DNA of 64,000 nucleotides. Source: an uncultured Acidimicrobiaceae bacterium. Its GTDB lineage: Bacteria; Actinomycetota; Acidimicrobiia; Acidimicrobiales; Bog-793. Below the pieces are notes generated by a model that saw only the letters and a list, made by a program, of their open reading frames with translations, searched no databases and was not told the origin of the DNA. The stretch spans positions 247,454-311,453 of the forward strand of contig CAWJBM010000002.1 of the NCBI GenBank assembly GCA_963841155.1. The letters are read 5' to 3'. Positions 13,391 to 20,095 of the stretch are shown piece by piece. The position numbers and the translations under genes were made by a program. The stretch's first letter is position 1; the number at the start of each line of letters is the position of its first letter.

Positions 13391-13447
13391 CCGGAGTTTG
13401 GCGCGACTTTCGCGTCGTTCCAGGTAGATGAGGTCGCGGAAGAGACG
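13391..13447 (-). mobile_element. Terminal 57 bp of an IS1634/IS4-like remnant (copy A), separated from the rest by the IS21 insertion
   Basis: The reverse complement continues the alignment of 19608..20095 with copy B (33040..33531) through ..CATCTACCTGG.ACGAC..GAAA..CGCGCCAAACTCCGG. Both copies lose similarity at that point, which marks the IS end. Confidence 0.7.
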
Positions 13448-13609
13448 TGTCAACGGCCAGTTTGTGGTACCCACTGGTGGCCAGCAAAAGTACCCACCCC
13501 TCTTGGTGCTTTGCTTTGACGATCGCGGTTCATTTCCTTGATTCAGATCGTCTGTGCCGGCGAGCGGCCAACCCTTCGATCTCGGGCTGACCGCAACACC
13601 AGCGAGCTC

Positions 13610-14098
13610 TCAGATGCTGTCGCTCACCTCCTTTGCAGCCGTCTCCGTCGTCGGCGCTCCACGCGGCAGTTTCGCCCCGGCAGATCGCTGGCGTGCCTCT
13701 TTCATGCGGAACGACTCGCCGTCGGTGACAACGACGATTCCGTGATGCAGGAGTCGGTCGAGCATGCTGACCGCCGTCGTGTGCTCGGGCAGGAACCGGC
13801 CCCACTGGTCGAAGGGCCAGTGGCTGCCGATCCCGAGCGAGACGCGCTCGTAGGCCGCTGCCACGAACCGGAACAGCAGCTGTGCACCGGCGTCATCGAG
13901 CGGGGCGAAGCCAAGCTCGTCGACGATCACGGCGTCCGCACGGAGGATCTGCTCGATCACCTTGCCGACGGAGTTGTCTGCGAGCCCTCGATACAGCGTC
14001 TCGACGAGCTCGGCCGCGGTGAAGTAGCGCACCCGCTTTCCCGCTTCGACGGCGGCATGGCCGAGGGCGATGAGGATGTGGCTCTTGCCGGTGCCGGC
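13610..14098 (-). pseudogene. istB: istB, C-terminal part (from the Walker A motif onward)
   Basis: Begins AGTGKSHILIALGHAAVEAGKRVRYFTAAELV..AVIVDELGF.. (Walker A and B of the IstB AAA+ helper). Confidence 0.85.
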
Positions 14099-14423
14099 AG
14101 AGATAGCGACAGACTGCAACATCTTCGGCAATCACTGCCGTGCGAGGTACGCGTCACGGCGCCTACGCACCCGTTGTTCGGCCGCCTGCTTCGAGCATCG
14201 GGGTTCAGGCGGCGCAGCGGCGTGCTGCTGCTCGTGGTGGATCTTCCCGATGGAACGCCGGGCACGATTCGCGCCGACGCCACCAACGCGTTCGTGGATG
14301 CGGTCGCCGATGTCCCTTTGACGGTCCTTTCGGTCGAAGGAATGCGCCAGCTCCGCCGGCTGACCGCCGCGCTGGTGATTGCCTGGTCGCGTGATCGTCG
14401 TGTCCGGAAGGACCGAGGCGGGA

Positions 14424-14660
14424 ATGCGTGACGCTTCTGACCGGCGTGCGAGGGAGGCGTTCTCGTGCGAATCGTGCGGGCGGTTCATCGTCACGGCCGT
14501 CGAAGGCCTGTTCCGCAACTCTCGGGTGGGGTCTAGAACCCGCTTCTGCTCGCCGAGCTGTCGACAGGCCGCCTATCGCCGCCGTCGTGCCGGCGTCGAC
14601 GAGAACGCGCCTCGCCAGCGCAAGGGCGGACGAGGGCGACGCCTCGGCGAGCGGCCGTGA
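14424..14660 (+). CDS. Small zinc-ribbon-like protein
   Basis: MRDASDRRAREAFSCESCGRF....RFCSPSCRQAAYRRRRAG, a C-x2-C ... FCS-x2-CRQAAYRRR motif. The ATG overlaps the stop of an upstream open frame. Confidence 0.5.
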   Translation: MRDASDRRAREAFSCESCGRFIVTAVEGLFRNSRVGSRTRFCSPSCRQAAYRRRRAGVDENAPRQRKGGRGRRLGERP

Positions 14661-14827
14661 TCTCCCGAGTTCTCGCATGAGACGTCGGGTCAGAGCCAGT
14701 TGGCAGAGCGGCGATGACGTGTCTGGCGTCGATGCCAGGTGTCATCTCGCCGCCGACGGCGGTCCGCGACCCTCCCCAGACGCGCAAATAGGCTCGACCG
14801 ACCCTGTACGCGCCAACGAACTGGGAG

Positions 14828-15013
14828 GTGAGCCTTTTGCGAAGGCTCAGGATAGCCGCGCCCACTCAGCTGCCCCTGGATCTCGACGGGGTGGCCCCGA
14901 CACCGACACAGCGGTGGTCGATGTTGCCCGAGACCGCACGCGAGCGCGTGCTCGTGCTGCTCGCCCGCCTCATCGCCCGCGGGGTGCTCGACAAGGAGGA
15001 CTCCGATGAGTGA
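14828..15013 (+). CDS. Small accessory ORF overlapping the recombinase start
   Basis: 61 codons with a GC3-rich coding look. Its stop TGA 15011-15013 overlaps the recombinase ATG 15006 (ATGAGTGA). The start codon is uncertain. Confidence 0.45.
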   Translation: MSLLRRLRIAAPTQLPLDLDGVAPTPTQRWSMLPETARERVLVLLARLIARGVLDKEDSDE

Positions 15014-17336
15014 CCTGTTGTCCAAGCTGACGCCGGGCCACCTCGGCCGCGACGCCTACATCTACGTGCGCCAGTCGACCCTCACCCAGGTCCGCGAGCA
15101 CACCGAGAGCCTCGAGCGCCAGTACGAGCTCGCCGATCGCGCCATGAACCTCGGCTGGCAGCCGCGCCAGGTGGTCATCGTTGACGAGGACCTCGGTCGT
15201 TCAGGCGCCGAGGCGACCGCCCGGGAGGGCTTCAAGGGACTCGTCGCCGACGTCGGTCTCGGGAAGGTGGGGATCATCTTCGGGATCGAGGTCTCCCGCC
15301 TCGCCCGCAACAACGCCGACTGGTACCAGCTCCTCGATCTGTGCGCCATGACCGACACGCTGATCGCCGATGGGGACGGGCTCTATCACCCGGCCGACTT
15401 CAACGACCGGTTGGTGCTCGGGCTGAAAGGGACGATGTCAGAGGCTGAGCTCCATCTCATCCGTCACCGGCTCACGGCCGGGCTGCGGCACAAGGCGGCC
15501 AAAGGTGAGCTCCGCCAGGGGGTGCCCGTCGGTTACTGCTACGACGCCGATGGCCGTATCGTGATGGACCCCGACGAGTCCGTGAGAGCGGCGATCGCGA
15601 GCGTGTTCCGGCTCTTCGACGAGGTCGGCACCGCCAGGCAGGTGATGTTGGTGATGCAGTCCGACGGGCTGCTCGTGCCTCGACGGCCGACGGCCTCGCG
15701 CCGGGTCACCTGGGCCCGGGCCAGCTACCCGTCGATCCACGACTTCCTTACCAATCCCACCTACGCCGGCGCGTTCGTGTTCGGCCGCACCCGCACCGAG
15801 AAGCGGCTCGACGAGAACGGTCGCCTTGTCGTGCGCACGCGTCAGGTGCCCCGCTCGGAGTGGGAGGTTCTGATCCCCGACCACCACGCCGGCTATGTCT
15901 CCTTCGAGCGCTACGAGGCGATCCAGGACGAGCTGCGCGCCAACTGGCACCCGCCGAGAGGCGAAGGGGGCGGTCCCGCCCGCGAGGGCACGGCGTTGCT
16001 GCAGGGCCGTCTGCGGTGCGGTCGGTGCGGGCGGATGATGCAGACCGGCTACTCGGGGGCGAAGGGCAACTGCCCGCGCTATGTTTGCGGACGGGCGCGC
16101 ATGCTCTATGGGAGCGAAGGGTTCTGCCAAAGCCTCGGTGGCAGGCGCCTGGAGCAGCGCGTGCTCGACGAAGTCTTCGCCGTTCTCGAGCCGGCGGCCT
16201 TGGCAGCGACGGCCAAAGCGCTCGAGGAGGCGGAAGCCCTTCACGCCAAGCGCCTTTCGGCTTTCGAACTCGCGGTGGAGCGTGCTCGCTTCGAGGCCGA
16301 TCGGGCTCGCCGCCAGTTCGACGCTGTCGAGCCAGAGAACCGGCTCGTCGCCCGCACGCTCGAGGCCGCCTACGAGCAGGCGCTCGTGGCGCAGCGACAA
16401 GCCGAGGCGGATCTCAGCGTCCAGCGTTCTCGTCAGCCGACGAGACTGACGAGTGAGGAGCTCGCCTGGGTCGCCCGGGCAGGAGCCGACCTGCGTGCGG
16501 TCTTCGACGCTCCGACGACCACGTACCGGGAACAGAAGCAGCTGCTCCGGGCGGTCGTGGCAGAGGTCGTCGTGACGGTGCGAAAGGACGATCGTGAGGC
16601 CGACCTGCGCATCATCTGGGAGGGCGGTGCGACGACGGAGTTCGTGATGACGCTCACCAAGATCGGTGGTCACTTCCGCACGACCGACGAGGACACCGTC
16701 GATCTCGTGCGCCGCCTGGCCGCCCGCTACGACGATGCCACCATCGCCGTCATCCTCGCTCGCCAGCATCGCCGCACTGCCAGCGGGCTCACGTTCACCA
16801 AGACCCGCGTGGCGAGCCTCCGGGTGTCCAGGCAGATCGCCGTCTTTCGACCCGAGAGTGTCACACCCACCGACGATGATGTCGTCGTGGTCGGAGTCGG
16901 CCGAGCAGAGCAGATCCTCAGGGTCTCCAGGTCCACGATCTACCGGTGGCTGCGCGACGGGTTCATTGCCGGCGAGCAGCTGACCGCAGGGAGTCCCTGG
17001 CACCTCCGCATCGATGCCGCCATGCGGGCCAAGGTGGTTGCTGAGGTTCCCGAGGGTTGGGTCGACCTGGACCGGGCGGCAATCGCGCTCGGCGTGGCCC
17101 GCCAGACGGTGCTCGACCGCATCCGTCGTGGTGAGCTTCGAGCGGTTCACGTCAATCGGGGCCGCCGCCGAGGCCTCGCCATCGAGATCGCACCGCAGGG
17201 ATCAACGAGGCTCTTCGAGAACGCGCCGGTTGGGGGGCCGAACCGAGTATCAAACGGTCCAGATGGGACCATGCGAGCAGGCAAAGCCATCAGGTCAGGC
17301 CGAAAACACCAGCAACCGCTGGGGTCTTTGGGCTGA
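15006..17336 (+). CDS. Large serine recombinase
   Basis: 776 aa. N-terminal resolvase domain AYIYVRQSTLTQ..SLERQ (catalytic Ser), recombinase domain, Cys-rich zinc-ribbon (CGRCGR...CPRYVC), coiled-coil, and a C-terminal HTH-like repeat (STIYRWLRDG; ARQTVLDRIRRGEL). Confidence 0.9.
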   Translation: MSDLLSKLTPGHLGRDAYIYVRQSTLTQVREHTESLERQYELADRAMNLGWQPRQVVIVDEDLGRSGAEATAREGFKGLVADVGLGKVGIIFGIEVSRLARNNADWYQLLDLCAMTDTLIADGDGLYHPADFNDRLVLGLKGTMSEAELHLIRHRLTAGLRHKAAKGELRQGVPVGYCYDADGRIVMDPDESVRAAIASVFRLFDEVGTARQVMLVMQSDGLLVPRRPTASRRVTWARASYPSIHDFLTNPTYAGAFVFGRTRTEKRLDENGRLVVRTRQVPRSEWEVLIPDHHAGYVSFERYEAIQDELRANWHPPRGEGGGPAREGTALLQGRLRCGRCGRMMQTGYSGAKGNCPRYVCGRARMLYGSEGFCQSLGGRRLEQRVLDEVFAVLEPAALAATAKALEEAEALHAKRLSAFELAVERARFEADRARRQFDAVEPENRLVARTLEAAYEQALVAQRQAEADLSVQRSRQPTRLTSEELAWVARAGADLRAVFDAPTTTYREQKQLLRAVVAEVVVTVRKDDREADLRIIWEGGATTEFVMTLTKIGGHFRTTDEDTVDLVRRLAARYDDATIAVILARQHRRTASGLTFTKTRVASLRVSRQIAVFRPESVTPTDDDVVVVGVGRAEQILRVSRSTIYRWLRDGFIAGEQLTAGSPWHLRIDAAMRAKVVAEVPEGWVDLDRAAIALGVARQTVLDRIRRGELRAVHVNRGRRRGLAIEIAPQGSTRLFENAPVGGPNRVSNGPDGTMRAGKAIRSGRKHQQPLGSLG

Positions 17337-17387
17337 CCTGGACCGAATGATCAAGTCGATGAAAGGAAAGCGCAGTGTCAACCATGT

Positions 17388-17728
17388 CCGGCCGGCCCCA
17401 CAAGGCACGGGTTCTCCCGGGCATCGATCCACTCGAGCGATGCCAGGTAGTCAAAGGTCCCCCGTGGGATCGAGGAAGCGTGCACGTCGAAGTCCTCGAG
17501 CGACTTCGAGACGGGAAAGCGTGCTTGTTTCAACCTCGCCATCGCGTTGGAGGCGTCCCTGCTCTCGATCTCGGCTTCGACGAGGGTCCGCAGCAGCTCC
17601 ACCGGCGCCCAGCGCTGGGTCTTGGCGACGGCGAGGACATCGGGCCCGATGCGGCGCATGGTGGCGAGCTTGAGACGCCGCAGGCCTGCCACGAGATCGG
17701 CGGGCAGCTCGGCCGGCGGGGCGCTCAT
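17388..17728 (-). pseudogene. istB: istB, N-terminal part
   Basis: MSAPPAELPADLVAGLRRLKLATMRR...FDYLASLEWIDARENPCLVGPAG, then runs into the cassette. The ATG overlaps the stop of the upstream small ORF (ATGA). Confidence 0.85.
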
Positions 17729-17988
17729 GAGGTGGTCTCCATGAGCCGGCGGGCGAAGTGCAAAAGTGCCGAGCGAAGCTCGCACACGCCGTAGCCGGGG
17801 GCATATGCCTGCATGGCCGCGTGCATGAGTCGGGGCTCGGCCTTCAACCAGCCGGCCACGAACTCGAGCATCTCGGCGCACTCGTATCTCTCCTCGGGTG
17901 CGAGCACCTTCGAGCTTTCGGGGCCATCGACATGCTCGACGCCCTCCTCGTTCGGATCAAGCCCGGAGCTTCCCTGCGGCGGGGTCAT
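17725..17988 (-). CDS. Hypothetical 87-aa protein encoded between istA and istB
   Basis: GC3-rich codon usage. Its ATG 17988 overlaps the istA stop (ATGA) and its stop overlaps the istB ATG 17728 (ATGA). No family recognised. Confidence 0.6.
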   Translation of the reverse strand: MTPPQGSSGLDPNEEGVEHVDGPESSKVLAPEERYECAEMLEFVAGWLKAEPRLMHAAMQAYAPGYGVCELRSALLHFARRLMETTS

Positions 17989-19445
17989 CGGAGCTCTCCG
18001 AAGCCGTAGGCGGACAGGGGCCTGGTGGGAACTTCGGGGAAGGCGGCACTGAGCGGCTCGCCGACCGCCTGCAGGCGGGGCACACCCGCGCCGGCATCGA
18101 GGATGGAGCGCACATCGGCGAGGGAAAAGCGCGAGTAGGTGGTCGCCCGCTCGAGTGCACAGATAAGCGCGTCGCGTCCGTAGGCGCTCTCGAGGGCCAC
18201 GATGGCCCCGAGCTCGCCGCCGAGCTTGCTCGCACCGCCCGCCGCCGCGGCCTTCAAGAACGCCATGCCCACCTCGCCGAGACCGACCATGGCGTGCTCG
18301 GCCGCGGTACGAGGCCGGGGCGCCCGCTGCGGTAGAGGCCGCGGACCGCCATAGTGGTCGTCGTTGATGGACGTCTCACCCGGTGCCACGAGATCGTGCA
18401 AGGCCATCTCGACGCCGAGATGCACGACGGCGAGCTTGCCGCCGGCGACCTCCACCTCGACCTGCTTTCCGATGAGGCGCATCGGGACCGAGTAACGGGC
18501 CGAGCCGAAGCGCACGCAGCTGAGCTTGTCCACCTTTCGGATGACCGCCTTTGCGACGCGGGGGCGCAGCGACGGCAACGGGGAGAACAGCGGTGCTTCG
18601 ACCCTGAGCCGCTCGGTGGGAATCGCACAGATCTCCGAGTGCTCGACGCAGTTGACCTCCTCGCACCACGCGGCCGCGGCGACATTGGCCGAGGCGAGGT
18701 CGAAGAACGGGACCTGCGGGACCATGAGGTCGGCCTTGGCGTAGCCCACGAGGTTCTCGACCAGTCCCTTCGACTCCGGGTCGTTGGCCTCGCAGAAATC
18801 CGGCCGGAAGCGATAGTGGGCGGCGAAGCGGACGTAGGCCGGTGTCGCCACGACGAGGTTGGCCACCACGCCTGCTTTGAGGCAACCCATGCGATCGGCC
18901 AGCACCACCTTCGGCACCCCGCCCAGGAGCTCGAAGCAATCGATCAGCATCGAAAGCGTCGTGTCGGAGCGCTCGTTGTCCGAAAAGCGCACAAAGCGCC
19001 ACCGGCTCCAGGCCGACACCGCACAGAACACGTGCAGGCCGAACTCCGAGCCCCAGTCGATGACGAGTGTCTCGCCCGGGCTCCAGATCGCCGGGCGCCG
19101 TCCCCGGTGGTGCTCGTCGCGCCAGTCGCTCTTTGTCCTGGCGACAAGACGTCGGAAGTTGCGGGCCGAGCCGGTGTAGCCGGCGGCGCGTGCCTCGGGC
19201 AGGAGACGCTTGGCCGAGATGCGCCCGCTCGTCTTTCTCACCTTGGTGGCCACGATGCCCGCGACGACGTCGTAGTTCCTCTTGCGCTCGGCCGCCTTGT
19301 CTTGAGTCGCGTCCCGTTCTTCGCGTTTGAGCACTGCACGCTTCACGGTCCGGTGCGTCGTGTTGCAGATTGCTGCGGCGCCCCGGTAGCTGCCCACCTC
19401 TCGGTAGGCGGCGATGATGTCCATTGTCTGCCTCACTGATTTCAT
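17985..19445 (-). CDS. istA: IS21-family transposase IstA
   Basis: MKSVRQTMDIIAAYREVGSYRGAA.. (HTH) followed by an rve-type core ..VIDWGSEFGLHVFCAVSAWSRWRFVRF... I chose ATG 19445; the listed ORF extends further 5'. Confidence 0.9.
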   Translation of the reverse strand: MKSVRQTMDIIAAYREVGSYRGAAAICNTTHRTVKRAVLKREERDATQDKAAERKRNYDVVAGIVATKVRKTSGRISAKRLLPEARAAGYTGSARNFRRLVARTKSDWRDEHHRGRRPAIWSPGETLVIDWGSEFGLHVFCAVSAWSRWRFVRFSDNERSDTTLSMLIDCFELLGGVPKVVLADRMGCLKAGVVANLVVATPAYVRFAAHYRFRPDFCEANDPESKGLVENLVGYAKADLMVPQVPFFDLASANVAAAAWCEEVNCVEHSEICAIPTERLRVEAPLFSPLPSLRPRVAKAVIRKVDKLSCVRFGSARYSVPMRLIGKQVEVEVAGGKLAVVHLGVEMALHDLVAPGETSINDDHYGGPRPLPQRAPRPRTAAEHAMVGLGEVGMAFLKAAAAGGASKLGGELGAIVALESAYGRDALICALERATTYSRFSLADVRSILDAGAGVPRLQAVGEPLSAAFPEVPTRPLSAYGFGELR

Positions 19446-19607
19446 GGTTCTGTCCTCCGGTCGGAGCGGTGTTTGGTTGGCACCGCCACCGTGTCCGGCC
19501 GGAGGGCACGAACGGTGGATGTTCAGTGAGGGGTGGGTACCTCTACATGGCCACGAGTGGGTACCTCGTCCTGGCCACACGCGGGTACTTTTTCATGGCC
19601 ACGGACA

Positions 19608-20095
19608 AGACGTGTCCCCCTACGCGTGAGCTGAACGCCCTGGTCAGGCGATTTCGGCCTTGGACCAGGTCGAGGTGTCGACGGAGAGGGCCCGGAGCAC
19701 CTTGGCCTAGAGGGCGCTGCGCCGGTTCACGAGCTTGATCTGGCAGTCGCCGGCGGAGATGTGCTGTAACCGGACCTCTTTCAACACCGAGAGGGCCCGC
19801 CGTGGCGTCATCGACTGGAAGGCCAGGTTGGGATCGGTCAGCTTCGCGTTCACGAGGTCTTGTGCCATGACGGCCTCGATGGTGGCCGCTAGCACGCAGA
19901 GCGCCACGTGTCCGCGCACCCGGGCCTCGGTCCAGTGGAACATCGGCCGCAGCGACAAGAAGTCCCTCATCACCCGGAAGCGGCGTTCGATTGACTGCAG
20001 GCTCTTGTAGTAGCGCAGCACCTGGGCGGCAGAGGCCTCTGAAGTCGTCAGCGATGTCGTGATGACGAGGCGCCCGAAAGGAACAGGTCAGGAAC
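19608..20095 (-). pseudogene. IS1634/IS4-like transposase 3' remnant (copy A)
   Basis: ORF 19707..20021: LRYYKSLQSIERRFRVMRDFLSLRPMFHWTEARVRGHVALCVLAATIEAV... is the C-terminal DDE-E region. DNA-level homologue of 33040..33531 in inverted orientation. The right limit is approximate. Confidence 0.7.

Follow-up and report, generated by a model that had tools for sequence, protein, structure and literature searches.

A 64,000-nucleotide stretch of DNA from an uncultured Acidimicrobiaceae bacterium, hereafter the window, carries an insertion sequence (IS) of the IS21 family in which a third gene lies between the transposase gene istA and the AAA+ ATPase gene istB. We call this gene X, give coordinates as window positions, and use L-numbers for homolog loci or contigs and P-numbers for family proteins. 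The flanking genes are istA and istB, as the original prediction had named them: IstA matches NCBIfam NF033546 (IS21 family transposase; 191.7 bits against a cutoff of 160) as well as rve and Mu-transpos_C_2, and IstB matches IstB_IS21 and NF038214, its 5′ part corresponding to IstB_IS21 profile positions 3–104. X reads on the minus strand from 17988 to 17725 as ATG ACC CCG ... ACC ACC TCA TGA and overlaps both neighbors. The istA frame ends ...GAG CTC CGA TGA, and this TGA has three bases in common with the start of X at its ATG (ccgATGAcc); the TGA that ends X likewise has three bases in common with the start of istB at its ATG (ctcATGAgc). The predicted 87-codon open reading frame (ORF) in the istA–istB gap was exact in its coordinates, and the ATGA overlaps claimed for its two ends can be read directly in both junctions.

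ORFs are so common in this GC-rich DNA, where 48 of at least 50 aa overlap one 6-kb stretch, that an ORF alone is no proof of a gene, and we therefore sought signs of coding. GC content at codon positions 1/2/3 is 0.67/0.48/0.82 in X, next to 0.68/0.50/0.86 in istA and 0.70/0.48/0.85 in istB, so the third-position richness noted earlier does resemble that of the flanking genes. Across five distinct alleles of the window's clade, the ratio of nonsynonymous to synonymous substitution rates (dN/dS) of X is 0.16–0.45 in frame versus about 0.9–6.8 in the two other frames. The core of the protein (residues 28–87) reaches 0.05–0.28, compared to 0.09–0.19 for istB, and the N-terminal 27 residues give 0.3–1.15 and contain indels. 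All five alleles keep both overlaps, as ATGA or GTGA, and keep GGAG-type Shine-Dalgarno sequences 8–13 nt upstream of the X and istB starts. X is a genuine protein-coding gene under selection. Its position would let ribosomes that terminate on istA reinitiate on X, and those that terminate on X reinitiate on istB; given the 4-nt overlaps on either side and the Shine-Dalgarno sequences ahead of both starts, the three proteins are expected to be synthesized together. The original prediction had proposed testing conservation and dN/dS of the ORF among copies, and had allowed that istA might normally extend through this region in relatives. The relatives contain no stops or frameshifts and purifying selection acts in frame; no extension of istA and no fusion of X to IstA or IstB was seen among them, and all profile hits are standalone proteins.

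The X product is acidic, with an isoelectric point (pI) of 4.8 in the window and a family median of 4.2, and its predicted structure agrees with the helical appearance first remarked on. An AlphaFold2 (AF2) model made from 13 sequences has a disordered N-terminus and helices at residues 31–50, 52–62 and 68–84, and an independent model of member P0106 made from 99 sequences has three helices and a low-confidence C-terminal tail, with a predicted local distance difference test score (pLDDT) of 85.4; core pLDDT exceeds 90 in both. In these models a disordered N-terminus precedes a bundle of three helices that spans about 55 aa of this small acidic protein. Single-sequence search recovered 12 close homologs, and a profile search recovered 1,124 proteins at E ≤ 0.01, of which the 120 listed are all 66–87 aa long. 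Residues conserved in the family include E36, E39, L41, E42, F43, Y66, L71 and R72, with E36, E39 and E42 on helix 1. In a filter-free HMMER scan of 1.84 billion representative proteins, X matched only standalone small proteins, and no X sequence was found inside a longer protein or fused to IstA or IstB. The product had been described as unrecognizable, and database comparison left it so: scans of X and up to 50 family members against Pfam, NCBIfam, PHROGs and PADLOC returned no match, as did a PDB sequence-profile search with X, and Foldseek comparison of two models with the PDB gave best E-values of 1.2 and 2.4 to generic helical hairpins (EsxB, saposin), which we treated as noise. A tblastn search of PLSDB plasmids with the window X and P0055 found nothing. 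In a search for homolog loci that used a 17-sequence family alignment, 29 of 31 genome loci belong to Actinomycetota (Acidimicrobiia, Pseudonocardia, Nocardia, Streptosporangiaceae, Catenulispora and others), and the remaining two are short contigs binned to Gemmatimonadota/Gemmatimonadales. Together, these searches indicate a protein family that has not been described before, with over 1,000 members that nearly all come from Actinomycetota.

Most members end in a conserved tail, ...RFAFLLGG[DP]G[ED]R[LF][FV].G[DE][DE]R (for example P0106, P0076 and P0029), which is modeled with low confidence and has the look of a short linear motif for docking. In the window's clade the N-terminus has been extended by a variable segment, and the tail is replaced by ...RRLMETTS, the codons of which double as the GGAG Shine-Dalgarno sequence for istB. 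One member, P0043 from Catenulispora subtropica (WP_344656720.1; L013:5001-5213), carries the UniRef label 'CdiI immunity protein domain-containing protein'. When P0043 and 16 further members were scanned against Pfam, no CdiI family came up even at E ≤ 10, and the label appears unsupported.

Genomic context was resolved for about 40 lineages out of the more than 1,000 proteins, a small, non-random sample, and places the family recurrently and in tight linkage within several unrelated transposon classes: IS21, IS30-like elements, tyrosine-recombinase pairs and Tn554-like trios. The order istA-X-istB with 4-nt overlaps on both sides occurs in the window's clade, L007–L012, L039, L054, L062–L064, the P0042 contig and L069–L074. 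A survey of IS21 relatives for an equivalent ORF, suggested with the original prediction, thus finds the same slot filled in at least 8 IS21 lineages, the most distant of which share IstA identity of only 30–34%. In the Catenulispora IS21 at L013, the istA–istB gap of 360 nt contains no ORF. In L047–L049, X lies 14 nt downstream of istB. These three IS21 contigs, each about 2.7 kb long and either identical to one another or 99.9% so, are assigned to metagenome-assembled genomes (MAGs) of three taxa, Gemmatimonadota, Phycicoccus and Frankiales, a spread explained either by wrong binning of a multi-copy IS or by horizontal transfer in the very recent past.

Beyond IS21, X lies 29–41 nt downstream of an IS30-like transposase (HTH_38 + rve) in L051 and L053. 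The extent of this unit is indicated solely by a 2.3-kb block that the two loci have in common at 86% identity and outside which their flanks differ, and an inverted-repeat search for its ends returned only low-complexity GC-rich pairs. In L014, L036 and related loci, X is the first gene of an operon and is ATGA-coupled to a tyrosine recombinase (Yrec1) that is itself ATGA-coupled to a second (Yrec2). Conversely, X is the last gene of a 2,628-bp element that encodes only YrecA, YrecB and X and is present in three copies of 99.9% identity in one MAG (CAWKBX01; L031:3625-6252, L032 and L033). This element constitutes a very compact tyrosine-recombinase transposon, for which no described family could be matched. 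X also accompanies Tn554-like sets, in which recombinases of 369 and 763 aa are joined by a DUF6262 protein. Two further arrangements were observed. A 4.56-kb multi-copy unit in the MAG CAWILM01 (L036:4948-9506, also L037, L038, L042 and L055) has perfect 15-bp terminal inverted repeats, CTAGTGTAGTGTCAG; in it, X-Yrec1-Yrec2 come after an IS630-type DDE_3 gene, and the whole may be one element nested in another, or a composite, that now moves as one. At L045:6359-7636, the gene that adjoins an X homolog encodes no transposase but a group II intron reverse transcriptase.

Within IS21 elements, X does not evolve in step with its neighbors. Between the window and L063, IstA is 72% and IstB 82% identical, and X is 31% identical with a different C-terminus. 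Sliding nucleotide identity between the two is 0.7–0.8 over istA and istB, falls to 0.13–0.52 exactly over X, and recovers at the istB start. Between L063 and L069, by contrast, X is 62% identical though IstA is only 34% identical. Pairwise distances of X correlate with those of IstA and IstB at rho 0.27 and 0.31, compared to 0.90 between IstA and IstB (15 non-independent pairs). X thus appears to have been swapped, or to have diverged very fast, within a conserved IS21 backbone, which argues against a subunit fitted to IstA or IstB and favors a portable module.

The element that houses X in the window has most features of IS21 membership, including an IstA-type DDE transposase, an IstB AAA+ protein (split here), inverted repeats with subterminal repeats, and a target duplication (Table 1). 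It departs from the two-gene order in which istA runs straight into istB, having three coupled genes instead, and is therefore filed as a variant and not as a canonical member of the family. Three direct repeats of the form GTGGCCA...GTACCC follow the left inverted repeat (~19540-19600), and homology among the independent copies L018–L020 begins exactly at that repeat. Uninterrupted copies of 99.3–99.8% identity in the metagenome contigs L016, L019 and L020 are bounded by the inferred inverted repeats, and the window element measures 2,866 bp with its insertion taken out; to this rejoined sequence the L019 copy is 99.7% and the L020 copy 99.4% identical. Just beyond the left end, at 19707-20021 on the minus strand, an ORF without a Pfam match at E ≤ 0.01 resembles the C-terminal end of an IS4/IS1634-type transposase (YYKSLQSIERRFRVMRDFLSLRPMFHW); if this is read correctly, the IS21 inserted in or beside another insertion sequence.

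Table 1. Features of the X-bearing IS21-family element and of the insertion it contains, in window coordinates
Feature	Position	Strand	Description
X, third gene	17725..17988	-	87 codons plus stop; residues 1-27 variable and predicted disordered, 28-87 predicted acidic three-helix bundle
istA, DDE transposase	17985..19445	-	486 aa; ATG at 19445, placed by alignment with L007 IstA; stop TGA at 17985-17987 overlaps X start
istB, 5′ part	17388..17731	-	Codons 1 to ~114; ATG at 17729-17731 overlaps X stop; broken in Walker A codons
istB, 3′ part	13610..14098	-	Walker A to stop; IstB_IS21 profile positions 102-237, E = 1.4e-36
Left terminal inverted repeat	19596..19607	-	TGTCCGTGGCCA; first base at 19607
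Right terminal inverted repeat	13448..13459	-	Reverse complement TGTCAACGGCCA; intact copies L016, L019 and L020 end here
Target-site duplication, 5 bp	19608..19612	-	CGTCT; second copy 13443-13447; read directly from both flanks
Insertion splitting istB	14099..17387	+	3,289 bp; boundaries by blastn against intact IS copies
Large serine recombinase gene	15006-17336	+	776 aa; Pfam Resolvase, Recombinase, Zn_ribbon_recom

The original prediction overlooked that istB is not intact in the window. Its reading frame ends at 17378 within the Walker A codons (GPAGHG, then a stop), and blastn homology to intact relatives runs from 19612 to 17388 and is picked up again from 14098 to 13441. The 5-bp sequence CCGGC stands at both junctions of the intervening DNA (14094-14098 and 17388-17392), and removing the insert together with one CCGGC restores a 274-aa IstB with the Walker A sequence GPAGTGKS intact. 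Because istB is split, the window copy is predicted to be unable to transpose alone. Besides the serine recombinase gene, the insertion has a 93-aa ORF (14379-14660) with a weak zf-FCS-like match; a DUF5372 match was not found within 14099-17387. Related serine-recombinase elements interrupt istA of a sister IS21 in L001–L006 (for example L003:1361-3966 and L001:3499-5219) at a site equivalent to window position 18770. These elements have about 70% nucleotide identity to the window recombinase element over part of the gene, and a DUF5372 gene adjoins their recombinase gene. The same kind of element therefore seems to have struck this IS21 lineage twice at different sites, which may reflect a preference for IS21 DNA or merely for IS-rich regions.

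The explanation we favor, which we hold at about even confidence, is that X is a portable accessory module, an adaptor or inhibitor acting on a partner common to many elements, and not a subunit of IstA/IstB. X would be a protein-binding adaptor or inhibitor made only when the mobility genes of its element are expressed, and because its expression is locked to those genes it would act at the time of transposition. Three observations point to a common partner outside the element: X serves DDE + AAA+, DDE-only and tyrosine-recombinase elements, it is restricted to one phylum, and it does not co-vary with IstA or IstB. The partner could be a host factor, a host defense, or something tied to the circular intermediate reported or expected for these elements; transposition proceeds through circular intermediates in IS21 and IS30 alike (bioRxiv 10.1101/2023.06.07.543989), as it is thought to do in tyrosine-recombinase transposons (PMC10214605). 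In a tentative extension that we regard as possible but doubtful, X would be a new class of host-directed factor exchanged as a cassette among unrelated elements in an arms race with its host target. Such an X could inhibit an Actinomycetota-specific defense or repair activity, or serve as an adaptor to a replication or nucleoid protein.

Several points weigh against the portable-module explanation. A slot locked between istA and istB is what would be expected of a subunit or regulator of the transpososome. A neighbor-joining (NJ) tree of X, weak for a protein of 70 aa, clusters partially by element class, which would also fit class-specific partners, and the distance correlation of X is based on a small set of non-independent pairs. 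Fast divergence of X could reflect relaxed or shifted constraint instead of an arms race with the host. No sequence or fold match ties X to a characterized protein in Pfam, NCBIfam, PHROGs, PADLOC, the PDB or by Foldseek. Several X loci have no clear transposon link and some adjoin proteins without a Pfam match, and at L050:6350-7303 an X homolog stands beside a NaeI-type restriction endonuclease gene; not every family member is demonstrably inside a transposon.

The operon position leads most directly to a dedicated IS21 cofactor or regulator that binds IstA or IstB, with each other transposon class having recruited its own adapted version. Such a protein might tune IstB loading or ATPase activity, or might inhibit the transposase. 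In at least 8 IS21 lineages X fills the space between istA and istB exactly and overlaps each by 4 nt, which would tie its synthesis to theirs, and it is under purifying selection as strong as that on istB. The loose clustering of X proteins by element class fits as well, as do the small auxiliary proteins required in tyrosine-recombinase transposons, such as Tn554 TnpC and SE Srap (PMC10214605), and the still undefined role of the IstA C-terminal region (PMC11208146). We nonetheless consider this explanation rather unlikely, because one family serves enzymes as unrelated as a DDE transposase with an AAA+ partner, a lone DDE transposase and tyrosine recombinases, because X is poorly conserved where IstA and IstB are well conserved, with the drop confined to X, and conversely well conserved between IS21 elements whose IstA proteins are distant, and because the well-studied IS21 and IS5376 transpose by IstA and IstB alone (PMC11208146). 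The original suggestion of a transposition accessory factor stands to this extent: the tight operon position fits it, whereas the family is not specific to IS21 and its divergence argues against a subunit fitted to IstA or IstB.

A passenger role unrelated to transposition, as an immunity- or antitoxin-like protein, an anti-defense protein or another useful trait, would account for a small, strongly acidic protein that is present in many element classes and in several loci without an obvious adjoining transposase, for its cassette-like replacement, and for the CdiI name on P0043. Cargo genes, however, usually have their own expression signals and lie outside the transposition operon. X is instead embedded between two essential genes or is first in a coupled recombinase operon, and in the 2.6-kb element it is one of only three genes; no toxin partner was seen beside it, Pfam does not reproduce the CdiI label at E ≤ 10, and PADLOC gives no match. 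We judge cargo clearly improbable. It is very hard to maintain that the product is irrelevant, X being a chance ORF or a mere translational relay from istA to istB. The abundance of ORFs in this stretch, the coupling at both ends and the poorly conserved N-terminal third, with its indels and dN/dS of 0.3–1.15, would allow it, but the core is under strong constraint, more than 1,000 homologs have conserved residues and a confident fold prediction, and some homologs follow istB or close an element, positions in which a relay would serve no purpose. Scarcely credible at all is a detached IstA C-terminal tail or IstB N-terminal dimerization domain split off by frameshift. X lies exactly where those regions would be encoded, but IstA (486 aa) and IstB (274 aa) are full length, the IstB profile match starts from position 3, and no fused form exists among the 1.84 billion representative proteins. 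Profile comparison with hhalign gave probabilities of 0.2% for X versus the IstB N-terminus and 1.3% versus the IstA C-terminus.

IS21 serves as a structural model of how an AAA+ ATPase controls a transposase, and it has been described as a system of two proteins. The conserved, coupled third protein of a widespread actinobacterial branch suggests that the two-protein model is incomplete for that branch. More broadly, one family of small proteins is built into mobility operons of elements whose chemistry is unrelated (DDE + AAA+, lone DDE and tyrosine recombinases), and its shared use and cassette exchange point to a shared, host-specific need or threat. A conserved third IS21 gene common to tyrosine-recombinase and IS30-like elements should surprise transposition specialists, and X can serve in practice as a marker when compact tyrosine-recombinase transposons are annotated, a group whose catalog in Actinomycetota is poor.

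Compared with described systems, X shares small size and strong acidity (median pI 4.2) with the DNA-mimic and anti-restriction proteins of the Ocr/ArdA-like class, properties that are not specific to that class, and it has no homology or fold match to a known mimic among PDB sequences or by Foldseek, PHROGs or PADLOC. A second comparison is with peptides that bind the beta clamp. Transposases of many unrelated IS families bind the clamp via terminal peptides, sometimes from a separate small ORF (PMC3971601, PMC4549789), and these peptides, including IS66 accessory ORFs, set a precedent in that unrelated IS families have converged on a single partner in the host. They also resemble X in using a flexible C-terminal peptide, as most X members end in a conserved low-confidence tail. 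The clamp consensus is Q-L-S-L-F/L with key positions Q1 and L4 (PMC3971601). The X tail resembles its hydrophobic end, but G-E-R-L-F or E-R-F-V-F tails lack Q1 and the window's clade, ending in RRLMETTS, has no such tail; the motif was rejected for X, and we do not claim clamp binding. IS66 operons (tnpA-tnpB-tnpC; PMC3971601) likewise combine an insertion-sequence transposase with small accessory ORFs in one operon, but their transposase family and accessory proteins are different and have no homology to X.

Closer in architecture are TnpC of Tn554, Srap of SE and GinD of GInt, small proteins that lack a catalytic motif and whose genes belong to the recombinase operons of compact transposons; recombination requires TnpC and Srap (PMC10214605). 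X relatives hold comparable positions beside recombinase pairs. In the Tn554-like loci observed here, however, the TnpC-like position is taken by a DUF6262 protein with a gene of its own, and X comes in addition to it; no sequence similarity between X and DUF6262 could be detected, and Pfam returned no hit for members of the X family. A C-terminal coiled coil is described for Srap and GinD, and X also occurs in DDE elements. The nearest comparison is with canonical IS21 elements (IS21, IS5376, ISMyo2, ISLxc1), which share with the window element an IstA DDE transposase and an IstB AAA+ protein, a 5-bp target duplication, TGT-type terminal inverted repeats next to which subterminal motifs recur, and translational coupling through stop codons that overlap the next start (PMC11208146, PMC4608216). 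In described members, the actinobacterial ISMyo2 and ISLxc1 among them, there are two genes, and the stop of istA directly overlaps the start of istB (PMC4608216, PMC2516522, PMC11208146), and a three-gene IS21 was not found described in the full-text literature, a search that lay outside ISfinder and TnPedia. The window element, at 2.87 kb, differs from these in having a conserved third gene interposed between istA and istB and coupled on both sides.

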